Program-made: the position numbers and the translations under genes
Part shown: positions 7,575-49,233 of the stretch, in pieces
Layout: every line of letters starts with the position of its first letter
Position numbering within the stretch: the stretch's first letter is position 1
The notes under the pieces: model-generated
Databases searched by the model: none
Seen by the model: only the letters and a program-made list of their open reading frames with translations
Told to the model about the DNA's origin: nothing
Sequence record: PZ543597.1
DNA: 64,000 nucleotides
Source: a phage
Strand: one strand, 5' to 3'

Positions 7575-8579
7575 TTAAAATGTAAACAGAATATTGATTT
7601 CTTCTGTCTGATCCATTGCCATGATAATAGGTGGCCTATTTTCCATATAAATCATTTCGCCCGAATGCCTCATTAAATCTTCTGGATCATAATAATCCTT
7701 TTCAGCTTTAACATTTGGGTCATTTGGATGAGCTTTAGCTTCAAGAGGATTTGTGATTATTGATATTTGTCTAAATCCTTTATTTCCTGGCAATGCAGCA
7801 TCAGGAAAGTAAACTGAATCTAAATATGCTTTAAAACGGATAGTATTTGCCTTAACCCGGTAAATTAATCCAAAATCATCTTGTTGCCAAGTGAGATTAT
7901 CTTCATACCCCCATCTAGTTGGGTCTTCTTTTAATTCCTCAGGCCAAGGAACTACGATATATTCATTTGTGCATCTATTTATAGATACATCGGGCGGAAT
8001 CTCAAAAAGATATTCCCAAACATATCCGTCTCCAGGTTCGATTGTTCCTTCCGCATCTCCTCGACCTTCAGGAGGAGTCATTGACCTAACAGAAGGAGTC
8101 CATTTTCCGCCTAATTTGAGGCATTCATCCTTATTAGTTAAAGATGCTATTGAACACATTCCGGTATCAGGAACATCTAAACAACGATATACTAACCAGC
8201 CTGCGCCTGATTCAGTAGCGTTGTAAGGAGCTGAGTTACACACTACAATATCGTTAATTCTAAATGTGTATGGATCCGGATATCTAGTATCTCCCCAATC
8301 TCTGCGAGGAATAACAGCATCAAGCATTGATGGAAGAACTTTTACTGTTCCCATCATATGCGTCCACATGTCAGTTACGCCTAATACAGAATCGGTTGGA
8401 TAAGGTGGGGCAAAGCCCACCTCATTTTCATTTGATGACCACGGTTCTGATCTTCCAAATGTGATAAAGATAGTGTTTTTATCCGGACCACTTCCAATTG
8501 AATTATAAAAATTCAGCATTTTTTCTGTTCTAAATTTTGAAGTAACTATCGCACGATAGATAACACTTGAATCATTCAT
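7575..8579 (-). CDS. 8: baseplate wedge protein gp8
   Basis: 334-aa ORF, same length as T4 gp8; synteny. Confidence 0.9.
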   Translation of the reverse strand: MNDSSVIYRAIVTSKFRTEKMLNFYNSIGSGPDKNTIFITFGRSEPWSSNENEVGFAPPYPTDSVLGVTDMWTHMMGTVKVLPSMLDAVIPRRDWGDTRYPDPYTFRINDIVVCNSAPYNATESGAGWLVYRCLDVPDTGMCSIASLTNKDECLKLGGKWTPSVRSMTPPEGRGDAEGTIEPGDGYVWEYLFEIPPDVSINRCTNEYIVVPWPEELKEDPTRWGYEDNLTWQQDDFGLIYRVKANTIRFKAYLDSVYFPDAALPGNKGFRQISIITNPLEAKAHPNDPNVKAEKDYYDPEDLMRHSGEMIYMENRPPIIMAMDQTEEINILFTF

Positions 8580-10212
8580 CTATTTTAACCTGTGTTGGAT
8601 TTTCAGGGTCTCTTGGATTTCCTATATTATCTTTTAGACGTTTATTAACTAAATCCCTAAATTGCGCAAATGTTGTTCCAGAAGCATCAAATAGGGGACT
8701 CATTAATTTACGTCGTTCAGACGGCAATTGACCTTGAAATATTGAATTATTATTTTCAGCATTATAGTCATCAGGAAGAGGATATTCTACACCAGCCATT
8801 GGGCCAGGCTCATAAATTGCTTCGCCTGTTACTGAATCATACTCAATTTCACCGGTTGGAGTTAATTTAGCTACTCTATCAGCATATTCAGTAGGCAATC
8901 CAGAATCCCATTTATAGTTTTTGTATTTATTAATTATAGTCTCTGTATGTTTAAGAGTTAAACCAACATTAATAAACATCGTTAAAAGGGTAATTGCTAT
9001 AAATCCAAATCCTACTGGATGAACAAAACGAATAACGTCAGATTTCCAGCGGGAAGAAGGTAAATTGGATTTAATTTTCATTACATAGTATGATCTACTT
9101 CTATTAATATAGTCTATATTGTTTTGAAGCAAATCCTTTCCTTTAACTCCACGAATAATTTCGCCTTCAAAACTAGGGAGTCTTTCTGCTTTAACTTCTT
9201 GACCAGCAATTAATCTTCCCAAAAGATTATGAATAGTTACGGTCCATTGCAATTTACCATTAGAATAACTTCTTTCTATATAAGTAACATTACATCTTCC
9301 TGTGGCTGTATAAATCGTTTGTCCTACTAAATCTTCAGTCAAAGAATCAGATTGAACGATTATGTCATATTCAGTACCAGCCCCAGATTCAATTTCAATT
9401 TCAACTTCTTCATTATAAAGAACTTTAAAAAGAAATTTGTATGATGCTTCAATTCCTTTAGTAGAATAAAAATCATAACTACGTGATTCAAAAAATCTTG
9501 CAACAGCATCACGTTTGTCAGCATTTAAATAAATGTTTCTTTTATATATCTCTGACCACAAATATTCCCACGCATGCTCTTCTCGTGGATACTGATTACG
9601 AATTAAATTTCGTAAATTATTATACTGAGTTCCGTATCCGTCAGAAAGATATTGAATATATGCTTCACAAAATGCCTCAAAATTCGAATCCTGCAACAAA
9701 TAAGAATCAGGCATCATTGTGCCAATTAATGGTCTTAAATCAGGGTCAGCTAATCCATGCTCTTCTTCTGGCGACCAAGGAGTCTCATGCTCTTGGTTTT
9801 GTAAAAATGCTTTTAAAAATACTCCAGTCGGCTTCCAAATAATTTCTACTGTATCTCTCACACGATAGTTAAAATCATAATAAGAAATTATTTCACCAGA
9901 AGATTTATAAAAAAGCATCCCAGACGCATATTTTTTAAATCCCGTGAATTTAACATTTGGCATTACTATCGTACAATCACCATCATCCCAGTATTCATGA
10001 ACTAATCTATCTGGTGATGTTTCCGGAATATTTTCTATAACTTTAGTGTATTTTAAATCAGCATAAACTACTACAGCTCTATTAGAGTTGTTTATCCAGC
10101 ACCGTGTATTAGACTTTTTAGACCAGTTAAAGAATGGTTCTGCATAGTATTTCATTGGCTGAGGCGTAAAAGTTTCCCAATCAGACTTTTCATCTGCTAT
10201 AAATGCCATCAT
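8572..10212 (-). CDS. 7: baseplate wedge protein gp7, C-terminal fragment (gene split by tandem duplication)
   Basis: 546-aa ORF beginning MMAFIADEKSDWETF..., which repeats the last 55 aa of the upstream fragment; the two pieces minus the repeat total about 1027 aa, close to T4 gp7. Confidence 0.8.
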   Translation of the reverse strand: MMAFIADEKSDWETFTPQPMKYYAEPFFNWSKKSNTRCWINNSNRAVVVYADLKYTKVIENIPETSPDRLVHEYWDDGDCTIVMPNVKFTGFKKYASGMLFYKSSGEIISYYDFNYRVRDTVEIIWKPTGVFLKAFLQNQEHETPWSPEEEHGLADPDLRPLIGTMMPDSYLLQDSNFEAFCEAYIQYLSDGYGTQYNNLRNLIRNQYPREEHAWEYLWSEIYKRNIYLNADKRDAVARFFESRSYDFYSTKGIEASYKFLFKVLYNEEVEIEIESGAGTEYDIIVQSDSLTEDLVGQTIYTATGRCNVTYIERSYSNGKLQWTVTIHNLLGRLIAGQEVKAERLPSFEGEIIRGVKGKDLLQNNIDYINRSRSYYVMKIKSNLPSSRWKSDVIRFVHPVGFGFIAITLLTMFINVGLTLKHTETIINKYKNYKWDSGLPTEYADRVAKLTPTGEIEYDSVTGEAIYEPGPMAGVEYPLPDDYNAENNNSIFQGQLPSERRKLMSPLFDASGTTFAQFRDLVNKRLKDNIGNPRDPENPTQVKIDE

Positions 10213-10231
10213 ATGATAATGCTTATCAGCT
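10063..10231. repeat. tandem duplication copy 1 (169 bp) inside gene 7
   Basis: ataaactactacagctct...gcttatcagct read directly from the sequence; identical to 10232-10400. Confidence 0.95.
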
Positions 10232-11839
10232 ATAAACTACTACAGCTCTATTAGAGTTGTTTATCCAGCACCGTGTATTAGACTTTTTAGACCAGTTAAA
10301 GAATGGTTCTGCATAGTATTTCATTGGCTGAGGCGTAAAAGTTTCCCAATCAGACTTTTCATCTGCTATAAATGCCATCATATGATAATGCTTATCAGCT
10401 AACCATTCACGAGGAAATTCATATTTAACGGCACCGATTAACTGATATTTTGCTACAGTTTCAGGGTCATTAACAACGTTATCATTTAAAAATTTAAAAT
10501 TACTCGAAGATAGAGAAACTAATTTACCATCAGTTGACATATTCGCATACCCAGGTTGAATACGTCTTCTTTCTTCTTCAGTGTTGCCAAAAACTCTTTT
10601 CCACGTTTTTGTGTCATGATTTAAAACATATATTCCTTTATCAGTAGAATCAATTATTTTTGACGTTCTAGGATTAGCATTTAATGTTTCAACTTCACCG
10701 ATAATAAGAGCAAAAACTTTATCACCAATAGAATCCATTTTATAGCATACTGCTTTAGGATTTCCAGTTATAGTCATTGTATCAGGTTCAAATAGCCTTT
10801 CCGAATATGTTGGAGATAATGGATCAGAATCTATAGGTGCATTGCTCGTTTTTATATATCTAACTTTATCTCTGGCAACAACATAGATATAATCATCCGT
10901 ACAAGTAATGGCTTCAGCTATACGATATACATTCGCTGGTAAAGTCGCATAAGTACCAAAGATTTCTACATCAAATCCTAAATGTAACTGGTCGCCAAGT
11001 TTAGCAAATGTTATATCCTGCGAACTGAATCTGACATCATCTGCTGACCATCTAACGTCAGTCGATTTACGGCCATAGAAAATCTTGTCGTATCCTAGAA
11101 CGTATGTTGTGTTCGCAGATTGGTAATATACTGTCTTAGATAAAGGATATCCTACACGGTCATTGAAGAGCTTTACGGCTTTCCAGGTTTGTCCTTTATC
11201 ATTGGATACTTTAACTACAGGTTGATAGCGCTCAAAAAGATATAGAATTCCTTCTGATTCCATCAAATAAACTCGGTTAATATCCTTACATACTTGCTGA
11301 ATAGAACCTTGTATTTCATGATACTCATTTTCACCAATAATAAAATTACTTATTGATGAAACATCAACATACGATGGGCTGAATTGAAATGATTCATTCA
11401 TCAATGCAGCCATTATAGTGTCATTGTTAAAATTAACATAATCAGAATTATTAAGAGTAAATTTTTCCTGAATGAATTTATTGGCTAATTGCATTTCAAT
11501 CATGTTTTGAAATGTATAAGCATTTGTAGCAAAAGTTTCAAACTCTTCGGTATAAATCCAATCAGACTGCTCAAAATCTTGCGCAGCTGTAGCTACTCTG
11601 ATAATGTATGATGTCAATGGGTCAGCATCATCAAAAAAGAAGCTGTTATTTGCAGTATATCCTAAGTTAATCCATCTGTATTGATTACTCGGGAGATTTT
11701 CCCCCGAGTTCGTTTTTGTCTCAGCGATTTCTACAAAATAGTAGAAATTAGCACCAACGTCATCCCAGCGTACTTGCACCTGATTTGCGGATAACTTGGA
11801 AATTCTGAGACTAGTGACTGAAGGTGCTTTTACTGTCAT
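10226..11839 (-). CDS. 7: baseplate wedge protein gp7, N-terminal fragment (terminated by frameshift at the duplication junction)
   Basis: 537-aa ORF ending ...NSNRAVVVYS*; the stop arises directly at the junction of the two 169-bp copies. Confidence 0.8.
   Translation of the reverse strand: MTVKAPSVTSLRISKLSANQVQVRWDDVGANFYYFVEIAETKTNSGENLPSNQYRWINLGYTANNSFFFDDADPLTSYIIRVATAAQDFEQSDWIYTEEFETFATNAYTFQNMIEMQLANKFIQEKFTLNNSDYVNFNNDTIMAALMNESFQFSPSYVDVSSISNFIIGENEYHEIQGSIQQVCKDINRVYLMESEGILYLFERYQPVVKVSNDKGQTWKAVKLFNDRVGYPLSKTVYYQSANTTYVLGYDKIFYGRKSTDVRWSADDVRFSSQDITFAKLGDQLHLGFDVEIFGTYATLPANVYRIAEAITCTDDYIYVVARDKVRYIKTSNAPIDSDPLSPTYSERLFEPDTMTITGNPKAVCYKMDSIGDKVFALIIGEVETLNANPRTSKIIDSTDKGIYVLNHDTKTWKRVFGNTEEERRRIQPGYANMSTDGKLVSLSSSNFKFLNDNVVNDPETVAKYQLIGAVKYEFPREWLADKHYHMMAFIADEKSDWETFTPQPMKYYAEPFFNWSKKSNTRCWINNSNRAVVVYS
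10232..10400. repeat. tandem duplication copy 2 (169 bp) inside gene 7
   Basis: Identical to 10063-10231 by base-by-base comparison; a 169-bp period is not a multiple of 3. Confidence 0.95.
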
Positions 11840-47247: not shown

Positions 47248-47511
47248 ATGTTTAAAGTATATGGTTATGATAGCAACATTCATAAATGTGTGTATTGCGA
47301 TAATGCAAAACGTCTTTTGACCGTGAAGAAACAGCCGTTTGAATTTATCAACATTATGCCGGAAAAAGGTGTTTTTGATGATGAGAAAATTGCTGAGCTT
47401 CTGACTAAACTAGGTCGTGATACTCAAATCGGCTTGACAATGCCCCAGGTATTTGCTCCTGATGGAAGTCATATTGGTGGATTTGACCAACTGCGAGAAT
47501 ATTTTAAATGA
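47248..47511 (+). CDS. nrdC: glutaredoxin (T4 thioredoxin)
   Basis: 87-aa ORF MFKVYGYDSNIHKCVYCDNAKRLL... with CVYC active site; matches T4 NrdC as recalled. Confidence 0.95.
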   Translation: MFKVYGYDSNIHKCVYCDNAKRLLTVKKQPFEFINIMPEKGVFDDEKIAELLTKLGRDTQIGLTMPQVFAPDGSHIGGFDQLREYFK

Positions 47512-47723
47512 TGCTCGAAGGAACTGACTATATTCATGATTACCGCGGAAGCGCGGTATATGTAGGTGATGAAGTTGCAGTTTATTATGGGTATGGAACT
47601 TTGATGACAGCCAAGGTTATTCAAATTAAAAATAATCGTGCTAAACTTGAAGTTTATTATTCTAATGGTGAAAAGTCTATTTCTAAGTGGAAATACGGCG
47701 ATTGTATGGTCAAACTGGGGTAA
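47508..47723 (+). CDS. hypothetical small protein
   Basis: 71 aa, ATGA-coupled to nrdC. Confidence 0.45.
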   Translation: MMLEGTDYIHDYRGSAVYVGDEVAVYYGYGTLMTAKVIQIKNNRAKLEVYYSNGEKSISKWKYGDCMVKLG

Positions 47724-47725
47724 AT

Positions 47726-47896
47726 ATGATTTACGATATTAATGTAGCAAGAACTCCATCAATGGTTACTATTCCAGCTGAAGAATTAGATCGTCTTCAT
47801 AAAATTGAAGAACTTCTTTGGGAAATTGAATCTGATTTGCCATCAGGACTAGAATCCTGGATTGATTATGAAGAACTTAATAAGCTTCGGGGTTAA
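47726..47896 (+). CDS. hypothetical small acidic protein
   Basis: 56 aa from ATG 47726. Confidence 0.4.
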   Translation: MIYDINVARTPSMVTIPAEELDRLHKIEELLWEIESDLPSGLESWIDYEELNKLRG

Positions 47897-48018
47897 ACCT
47901 TGGTGGGCGGTTAGATGGGAAACTGTAGAGCCAGAGCCGGAAGAACCGGTTTACACTGATGAAGAAACAGTATATAATGAACCTACAATAAATGACTTAA
48001 TTGATATGGAGATGGGAC

Positions 48019-48504
48019 ATGATTACAGTAGATAAGTGGTTTAGAATTAATCGTGTTGATACAGGGCTATGTAATTACTGGCCGGAACTTAGTGCAGGTA
48101 CTGTCTTTAAAGTTCGTGAACTTGCAAAAGAATGCGAAGATGATATAGAACCTGATACTGGAATTATTGAAATTGAACTTTCCGACGGAAAGATTATTAA
48201 CATCTATGATAAGCCAATTACATACTGGTGTTTGTGGAATACTGAATCCGTTGAAAATGGCGAAATTGAAGAAGTTGTAGAGAGAACTAGCCAAGATGTT
48301 CAGAAGCCTAAAGCCGCTTTTCAAGGTGAACGTATTTCATACGCATTAGCTAAATTAGCTGCGCAAGAAAATAACGATGGCTATGAAGGTAACCTGATGC
48401 AAGCTGCCGCAGAGTACATTGAATGGCTTGAAACTCAAATTTCTTTTTCTGACCAAAAGATTCGGCAATATAAGCGATTGCATCAAATGTTTTACAATAC
48501 TTGA
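48019..48504 (+). CDS. hypothetical protein at the T4 pin position (possible Lon-protease inhibitor homologue)
   Basis: 161 aa from ATG after ggagatggga; same length as T4 Pin and located between nrdC and gene 49; the assignment is by position and size only. Confidence 0.4.
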   Translation: MITVDKWFRINRVDTGLCNYWPELSAGTVFKVRELAKECEDDIEPDTGIIEIELSDGKIINIYDKPITYWCLWNTESVENGEIEEVVERTSQDVQKPKAAFQGERISYALAKLAAQENNDGYEGNLMQAAAEYIEWLETQISFSDQKIRQYKRLHQMFYNT

Positions 48505-48540
48505 AAAAACTCAAAATTCTTTTTCTGACAGGACATTTTA

Positions 48541-48717
48541 ATGAAAACCGAATTGGTTTATACTGAAAAGTTAAATGGCGGTAAGGTTTGGAAACTTTTT
48601 ATTAAAGGACATTCTACGGACCCTCATATGACCACTTGCGTAGGAACCTATTCTCGTCCTACTAAAAAGATGATTCGACAGTATAAACGATTGCATCGAA
48701 TGTTTTACAATACTTAA
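48541..48717 (+). CDS. small ORF sharing the 3' end of the upstream gene
   Basis: 58 aa; last 15 residues (MIRQYKRLHRMFYNT) nearly identical to the C-terminus of the upstream gene through a 45-bp direct repeat. Confidence 0.4.
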   Translation: MKTELVYTEKLNGGKVWKLFIKGHSTDPHMTTCVGTYSRPTKKMIRQYKRLHRMFYNT

Positions 48718-48759
48718 AAATAATAAATACCCTTATCTATTTAAGGTAAGGGTTTTATT

Positions 48760-49233
48760 ATGTTATTGACTGGCAAATTATATAAAGAAGAAAAACAGAA
48801 ATTTTATGATGCGCAAAACGGTAAATGCTTAATTTGCCAACGAGAACTAAATCCTGATGTTCAAGCTAATCATCTTGATCATGACCATGAATTAAATGGA
48901 CCAAAAGCAGGAAAGGTACGTGGATTGCTTTGTAATCTATGCAATGCCGCAGAAGGTCAAATGAAGCATAAATTTAATCGTTCTGGCTTAAAGGGACAAG
49001 GTGTTGATTATCTTGAATGGTTAGAAAATTTACTTACTTATTTAAAATCCGATTACACCCAAAATAATATTCACCCTAACTTTGTTGGAGATAAATCAAA
49101 GGAATTTTCTCGTTTAGGAAAAGAGGAAATGATGGCCGAGATGCTTCAAAGAGGATTTGAATATAATGAATCTGACACTAAAACACAATTAATAGCTTCA
49201 TTTAAGAAGCAGCTTAGAAAGAGTTTAAAATGA
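48760..49233 (+). CDS. 49: endonuclease VII (Holliday-junction resolvase)
   Basis: 157-aa ORF MLLTGKLYKEEKQKFYDAQNGKCLICQREL...; matches T4 gp49 as recalled. Confidence 0.95.
   Translation: MLLTGKLYKEEKQKFYDAQNGKCLICQRELNPDVQANHLDHDHELNGPKAGKVRGLLCNLCNAAEGQMKHKFNRSGLKGQGVDYLEWLENLLTYLKSDYTQNNIHPNFVGDKSKEFSRLGKEEMMAEMLQRGFEYNESDTKTQLIASFKKQLRKSLK

Follow-up and report, generated by a model that had tools for sequence, protein, structure and literature searches.

The window analysed here, a stretch of 64,000 nucleotides from a phage (sequence record PZ543597.1), carries on its plus strand the gene nrdC, three small ORFs, pin, a small gene of 58 codons, a stem-loop and gene 49 (endonuclease VII), after which nrdD follows on the same strand (Table 1). 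A query of 791 nt spanning pin and the small gene (47990-48780) matched 640 phage records in total and was 100% identical to several independently sequenced Tequatrovirus genomes (fFiEco06, fHoEco02, ECO07P4, a51, and others), and on the strength of this match the window is assigned to a T4-like Tequatrovirus of the RB32/fFiEco06 type, in the reverse orientation of the T4 map. A transcript spanning pin and the small gene probably starts from the early promoter-like site upstream of pin; the annotation of SA20RB places a promoter at the equivalent position, and the scan listed no promoter-like site on the + strand between 48226 and 49041. At the other end, the stem-loop immediately 5' of gene 49 is kept in every allele type of the pin-49 interval described below and forms the right-hand border of the variable segment. 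Two genes 5' of pin, an ORF of 69 aa (47687-47896) matched phrog_3402 (“antitoxin from a toxin-antitoxin system”, E 3e-39) and also, weakly, a RecBCD-inhibitor PHROG.

Table 1 Features of the pin-49 interval and its surroundings, in window positions.
Feature	Position	Strand	Detail	Basis
nrdC	47248-47511	+	followed by three small ORFs, then pin	ORF list
Sigma-70-type (early) promoter-like site	47950-47978	+	TTTACA-17-TATAAT, upstream of pin	11/12 matches
pin	48019-48504	+	ATG at 48019, stop at 48504	ORF list
pin core (PinA / Inhibitor_I24 domain)	48019-48456	+	codons 1-146	Pfam and PHROG profiles
Repeat A	48427-48453	+	last conserved pin-core codons (..LETQISFSD)	sequence read, repeat finder
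Fusion junction CAAAAG (“QK” form)	48454-48459	+		junction comparison
Putative chimeric tail of pin	48457-48504	+	codons 147-161 and stop; most of repeat B	homology to small-gene codons 44-58
A6 run	48504-48509	+	join of fused-pin allele end to putative ancestral-pin stub	allele alignment
A' stub	48506-48541	+	putative dead 3' end of an ancestral-type pin	allele comparison
Counterpart of the 137 nt missing in T4-type pin	48533-48669	+	8 nt before the ATG and codons 1-43 of the small gene	SA20RB/SP1 vs T4/Shinka
Small gene (DUF7279 / phrog_3272)	48541-48717	+	58 aa	profile matches, structure model
Repeat B'	48672-48717	+	last 15 codons and stop of the small gene (C-terminal helix)	repeat finder, structure model
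Stem-loop	48729-48753	+	immediately 5' of gene 49; 10 pairs	-19.9 kcal/mol, z -4.2
Gene 49 (endonuclease VII)	48760-49233	+	anchor for locus comparisons	

The product of pin matched the Pfam family Inhibitor_I24 (PF10465) over residues 4-141 with 160.8 bits (cut-off 27). It equals T4 PinA (NP_049694, 161 aa) in length, shares its fused architecture and is, by its sequence, a close orthologue of that protein and a predicted inhibitor of Lon, an activity that, as cited in PMC8835725, has been demonstrated biochemically for T4 PinA only. The last 15-20 residues of pin fall outside the PF10465 model, phrog_2167 (146 positions) matched residues 1-146 of the window pin end to end, and residues 147-161 matched positions 44-58 of phrog_3272, the family to which the neighboring small gene belongs. 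Since these domain boundaries coincide with the junction given in Table 1, they support a fusion between pin and the small gene. Among 5.8 billion proteins searched, the close relatives of pin formed two classes, a tailed one of 161 aa, confined to sequences of ≥90% identity, and one of 148 aa ending in ...SFSDRAF, and the more distant full-length homologues were without the T4-type tail; all 148-aa pins have the ending ...FSD(R/K/E)AF*, as do pins of many genera. The comparisons point to an ancestral pin of 148 aa that was tail-less, ended in ...SFSDRAF* and had its stop overlapping the ATG of the small gene. In the AF2 model of the window pin (mean pLDDT 65, about 53 in the tail) a single helix covers residues 121-159, and the acquired tail may lengthen this C-terminal helix.

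The original prediction held that the small ORF had been created by a duplication, an origin at odds with what was found in relatives, where the gene is ancestral; the original prediction had itself named this outcome as refuting, and it applies to the part on origin. The 58-aa ORF scored 62.7 bits against Pfam DUF7279 (PF23945; cut-off 24.5), with residues 7-56 on profile positions 1-53, and matched positions 1-58 of the 59 of phrog_3272 (E 3.4e-34); it is 100% identical to the RB32/RB33 protein YP_803020.1 (pVOG VOG5760). A tblastn search with it returned 370 phage records, the lowest identity being about 40%. The DUF7279 gene adjoins gene 49 on its 5' side in five genera, namely Tequatrovirus (SA20RB), Gaprivervirus (VR7), Dhakavirus (JS10), Mosigvirus (phiC120, ST0) and Gelderlandvirus (UTK0003), and of the 44 gp49-anchored IMG/VR loci, at least 15 have it directly 5' of gene 49. 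The family threshold was passed even at distant loci, next to a gene 49 with a product of 68% identity only (L044), and in phages lacking pin. Among eight phages, pairwise dN/dS of the small gene ranged from 0.06 to 0.33 (24 of the 28 comparisons, those with an estimable dS), which indicates that it is under purifying selection and behaves as a protein-coding gene. The sequence evidence thus argues for an old, real and independently conserved gene, and its annotation is to be corrected to match. AlphaFold predicted three strands (residues 2-9, 15-22 and 31-37) and a C-terminal helix (42-56), the top model alone being reasonably confident (pLDDT 81.7), and this helix is the best-conserved part of DUF7279. 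A fold search of the model against the PDB gave no match below E 0.27, its dsRBD- and HigB-like hits being non-significant. A profile search of 1.8 billion representative proteins yielded 9 DUF7279 hits only, with no informative multi-domain relatives among them, consistent with a family limited to T-even-like phages, and a literature search found no publications on DUF7279.

Two pairs of same-orientation repeats link pin to this gene. In the first, A (48431-48453, AAACTCAAATTTCTTTTTCTGAC) and A' (48507-48529, AAACTCAAAATTCTTTTTCTGAC) are identical at 22/23 positions, and A reaches 4 nt further left (CTTGAAACTC...), 48427-48453 pairing with 48500-48529 if a difference of 3 nt in a run of A is allowed. 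In the second, B (48459-48504) and B' agree at 41/46 positions, and the start-to-start spacing reported by the repeat finder is 213, that is, 76 + 137. The repeats had been described correctly at the outset except for the second copy of B, where the location stands and the exact bounds shift by one base (48672-48717 in place of 48671-48716); the observation that the reading frames of the window pin and the 58-aa ORF both end in ...IRQYKRLH(Q/R)MFYNT* was likewise confirmed. Since the whole 64-kb window, shuffled 20 times with dinucleotides preserved, gave best 45-nt matches (offsets 30-400) of only 28-33/45, the A/B repetition is far beyond chance. A 100-nt stretch that runs from the end of B through A' into the small ORF was covered to at least 80% in 114 phage records, and with the same allele in 114 records an assembly artefact is excluded as the source of the repeats.

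Between B and the small gene, the novel join ...ACTTG-A6-CTCAAA... connects the stop region of pin to a second pin 3' end. The run of A varies in length, from A6 in the window to A11 in phage L14, which suggests replication slippage at a recombination joint. What follows it appears to be a pseudogene stub, consisting of the last 11 codons and the stop of an ancestral-type pin: in the 35-nt sequence AAACTCAAAATTCTTTTTCTGACAGGACATTTTAA the old pin frame reads KTQNSFSDRTF*, its TAA overlaps the small-gene ATG, and the ORF 48419-48541 ends at this stop. An AGGA (48530-48533) lies inside the stub 7 nt 5' of the small-gene ATG, and is already present in the SP1 haplotype.

Comparison of the interval across phages established four alleles, with their exact junctions and the family memberships of their genes. 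In type I (SA20RB, HY01, KNP5, SP1; ...TTTTCTGAC CGAGCGTTTTA ATG...), the pin core, the small gene and the gene 49 leader are as in the window, whereas A and B are single; the 148-aa pin ends in ...ETQ(I/N)SFSDR(A/T)F*, thus in ...RAF* or ...RTF*, its stop overlaps the small-gene ATG (TAATG), and about 40 nt lie between the end of the small gene and gene 49. Type II (T4, T2, Shinka; ...TTTTCTGAC CGA|ATG ATT CAG...) is exactly type I minus 137 nt. The missing stretch comprises the last two pin codons, the pin stop and small-gene codons 1-43, and its loss joins pin codon 146 in frame to small-gene codons 44-58, starting at Met44, to give 161 aa and a distance of only 41 nt between pin and gene 49 in T4. 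The T4 junction GACCGA|ATGATT is the exact concatenation of type I sequence. Type III (the window, RB32, ZN18, L14) runs from a fused pin through the A-run and the ancestral-pin stub to an intact small gene, and in type IV (Pu-Krd-SF4, T4_ev240; ...CGAGCGTTTTAAT|ACTTGAAAATAATAAATA) the small gene is cleanly removed between GTTTTAAT and GTTTTACAAT while pin retains its ...RAF* end.

Junction-specific megablast identified type III in 114, type I in 72 and type IV in 57 records, counts that are approximate given the short queries and a redundant database of 50,697 phage records; the sum for types III and I (186) agrees with the 188 records that cover at least 80% of the 791-nt query. The fused pin is the majority form in Tequatrovirus. 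Its junction occurs in three forms that make up a one-step series, CGAATG in T4 (“RM”), CAAATG in APTC-EC-2A (“QM”) and CAAAAG in the window (“QK”), the outer two of which differ at 3/9 nt. The same megablast counted the RM form in 48 records, all type II alleles, and the QK form in 278 records, type III included. In protein terms, the tail of the window pin differs from that of T4 PinA by three residues (QKIRQ.. vs RMIQQ..), and T4 is without the small gene, whereas the window retains the ancestral-pin stub and an intact small gene 3' of the fused pin.

The alleles bear directly on how pin and the small gene came to share an end. Judged on the window alone, the layout A-B / A'-X-B' suggests a duplication of the pin 3' end (A+B) with later insertion of a foreign coding segment between A' and B', or else the capture of a small gene at that place, as the original prediction proposed. 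Type I has X with zero duplication, the pin family profiles end before B, and X together with B' makes up a full-length DUF7279 whose N-terminal part is the same where pin is tail-less or absent, so that we find insertion or capture scarcely credible. Of the partial duplication, the second copy of the pin 3' end (A') stands, but the supposed inserted coding segment, the 141 nt between A' and B', is part of the ancestral gene. The shared C-terminus would also have travelled in the direction opposite to that first proposed, with pin taking the last 15 codons of the small gene through the 137-nt deletion. By the same comparisons, the C-terminus of the reference T4 PinA appears to be chimeric, its last 15 residues stemming from a neighbor gene that T4 has since lost. 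Insertion of a mobile element or moron with target-site duplication was rejected since type I carries the “insert” without any duplication, and the ORF list shows no homing-endonuclease or transposase gene within the pin-49 segment.

The alleles also speak to the suggestion, raised with the original prediction, that the repeats are a conserved cis-regulatory element, which could be, for example, a cassette of the PeSL type or a control element of gene 49. PeSLs are intergenic cassettes of a promoter and a stem-loop, about 100 bp long, which mediate shuffling in T4-type phages (PMC2839356), and the pin-49 interval resembles such shuffling in its indel polymorphism of small accessory ORFs and in its position beside the gene 49 stem-loop, within a variable early region. 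It differs in that the breakpoints lie inside genes and in the nature of the repeats: the scan found no stem-loop or promoter-like site in A, A', B or B', the repeats are coding in the other alleles, and the substitutions in them are mostly synonymous. Repeats that are coding and free of promoter and stem-loop argue against PeSL-mediated shuffling, and the identification with a PeSL cassette was dropped. Types I, II and IV carry single copies, hence the duplication is not conserved. We consider the chance that the repeats are a cis-element to be next to negligible.

It is likely, in our assessment, that the fused pin arose through the 137-base deletion and that type III then joined this fused pin to an intact small gene, leaving the arrangement in the window as a recombination scar. 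The whole history is read from comparative sequence, and the order of events is inferred. In the first step, the deletion would turn type I into type II; in the second, an unequal (illegitimate) crossover in which a type II genome recombined with a type I genome within the A-run would yield type III, and the small gene would be re-supplied to a fused-pin genome. The left half of the window structure (A, CAAAAG, B) agrees in haplotype with type II-QK alleles (for example, L009-L013). The right half, from A' to the small-gene ATG, is identical to the 3' end of the live pin of SP1, including its AAAATTC and AGGACA variants, and inside the small gene SP1 and the window differ at two sites, both synonymous. 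Since the halves match type II-QK and an SP1-like type I, a crossover between types II and I is the simplest account. At the join CTTG-A6-CTC, the left parent (CTTGAAAAT) and the right parent (CTTGAAACT) share at most 1-3 nt of A, plus possible slippage, and the crossover is called illegitimate by default. T4 recombination requires only short patches of homology (Arbiol et al. 2010, PMC2839356), and the earlier suggestion of recombination at short homology is borne out in that the join was made within a short A-run.

The same final structure would result if the duplication had come first, with a 213-nt tandem duplication in type I, a 137-nt deletion in copy one and a later B x B' pop-out giving the T4-type allele. 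The B-B' spacing agrees with such a course, as the 213 is the sum given above, and with a second small gene still in place, losing the 137 nt would have done no harm. In phage PST, the QK junction is followed by the B' haplotype, which looks like the B x B' pop-out product of a type III allele, although ordinary allelic exchange could give the same result. Against duplication first, three events in place of two are needed for three alleles, and the A and A' of the window are of different haplotypes (AAATTTC vs AAAATTC). It also leads one to expect type III alleles with an RM junction, and a pristine RM junction was found in 0/114 type III records (best match with 2 mismatches). The lack of type III-RM together with the one-step junction series favors the order in which the deletion preceded the crossover, and we hold duplication first to be unlikely. 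Separate origins of the QK and RM junctions are less likely given their equal length and the QM intermediate in APTC-EC-2A. Rampant allelic recombination among T-even phages blurs arguments from haplotypes, so that deletion first is to be read as the favored order.

The direct repeats of type III would render it resolvable, A x A' exchange restoring type I and B x B' exchange giving type II. An early transcript starting at the promoter-like site would span pin and the small gene. Translation of the two would be coupled through TAATG in type I, whereas in type III the pin stop lies 37 nt upstream and the small gene would depend on the AGGA of the stub for its translation.

Losses of the same gene are seen outside Tequatrovirus as well. 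The order in Mosigvirus is 49.1, DUF7279(a), pin, DUF7279(b), gene 49. Two diverged DUF7279 paralogues thus flank pin in Mosigvirus (phiC120, L005, 306-476 and 901-1080; L022, 695-844); ST0-type phages have paralogue (a) alone and no pin. In one Mosigvirus-like Logan contig (L061), pin ends in ...EYIEYLERR|FHRDFYNVY* and gene 49 follows directly, the fusion having been made between short ACGTTT homologies, AGACGTTTAAG on the pin side and AAACGTTTCCAT on the small-gene side, which points to a second, independent in-frame fusion of pin to a DUF7279 tail. Two ENA contigs (L062, L063) have copy (b) cleanly deleted, and in both of them copy (a) lacks a stop and reads through into pin to give a DUF7279-PinA protein of 191 aa (P0046). 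Taken over Tequatrovirus and the Mosigvirus-like phages, the DUF7279 gene proximal to gene 49 appears to have been lost at least four times independently, leaving its helix on pin twice.

Several other forms of pin were observed in the databases. Many “pin” entries 180-184 aa long (P0041, P0044) begin with extra N-terminal residues that come from reading paralogue (a) out of frame, likely a start-codon miscall. Gaprivervirus VR7 (L003, 456-901) and Dhakavirus JS10 (L004, 429-904) have pin cut to an ORF of 57 aa that matches its C-terminal third only (...AAADYIHWLEAQLRFSDEAF), and an unrelated ORF of 89-100 aa lies between this remnant and the DUF7279 gene. One ENA contig of 1494 nt encodes a protein of 142 aa (P0039) in which about the first 83 residues of pin are followed by Peptidase_S24 (LexA-like, PF00717), probably a chimeric assembly or another pin rearrangement.

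Two independent in-frame fusions with different junctions, one in the T4 type and one in the Mosigvirus-like contig, raise the question of adaptive capture, in which PinA would gain a new interaction or a better one through the DUF7279 helix and type III would be kept as a recombination-resolvable allele. That the fused pin has become the majority form in Tequatrovirus and that the tail is the most conserved part of DUF7279 would both fit. Yet two in-frame outcomes could be due to chance (about 1 in 9), pins without a tail are common and represent the ancestral state, the second fusion comes from one contig only, and the tail is modelled with low confidence (pLDDT about 53), so that we regard adaptive capture as quite improbable. 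A more specific form of the idea, in which DUF7279 ends in a portable interaction module, its C-terminal basic helix (RPTKKMIRQYKRLHRMFYNT), that pin captured at least twice independently because it improves or redirects the inhibition of Lon or brings in a second host target, we rate as highly doubtful. If it were true, type III would be a recombination-resolvable “both options” state that lets the population toggle between tailed and tail-less pin and between presence and absence of DUF7279.

In the rII region of T-even phages, deletion r1589 fuses rIIA and rIIB in frame, and partial tandem duplications arise by unequal recombination at very short homology and segregate by recombination between the repeats. 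The pin case is alike in that adjacent cistrons are joined in frame and repeats come from minimal homology; it differs in that the rII variants are laboratory mutants, whereas the pin-49 events are natural, are fixed in large parts of the population and concern accessory early genes. The feature is thus a recombination scar among natural alleles, an instance of ordinary phage mosaicism, and the kind of system is already known. With four Tequatrovirus alleles, at least four putatively independent losses and two in-frame fusions, pin-49 offers a compact and well-populated case of how T-even accessory genes may be lost, fused and regained through very short homologies.

For PinA itself, the comparisons imply that the T4 protein used in Lon biochemistry would be a chimera, and many natural phages make a tail-less PinA of 148 aa. 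The PinA literature, as far as its accessible part goes, takes the 161-aa protein as the native unit, and we found no report that the C-terminus of T4 PinA comes from a neighboring gene. The natural 148-aa and 161-aa forms are ready variants for asking about the role of the tail in Lon binding.

Two further similarities within the window concern other genes. A stretch of 37 nt in pin (48412-48448, ...EYIEWLETQISFS) is 70% identical to one in gene 49 (49006-49042, ...DYLEWLENLLTYL), and this “EWLE” similarity is probably due to chance. At 10057-10401 there is a tandem duplication of 169 nt (2.0 copies, 99% identical) that divides a baseplate-wedge gene (gp7-like, single in relatives) into the minus-strand ORFs 10226-11839 and 8572-10212, which have the peptide MMAFIADEKSDWETF...AVVVY in common. 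The closest relatives aligned over 382 nt of a 551-nt stretch, hence as a single copy, and the duplication is either a private, frameshifting one in an essential gene or an assembly artefact.
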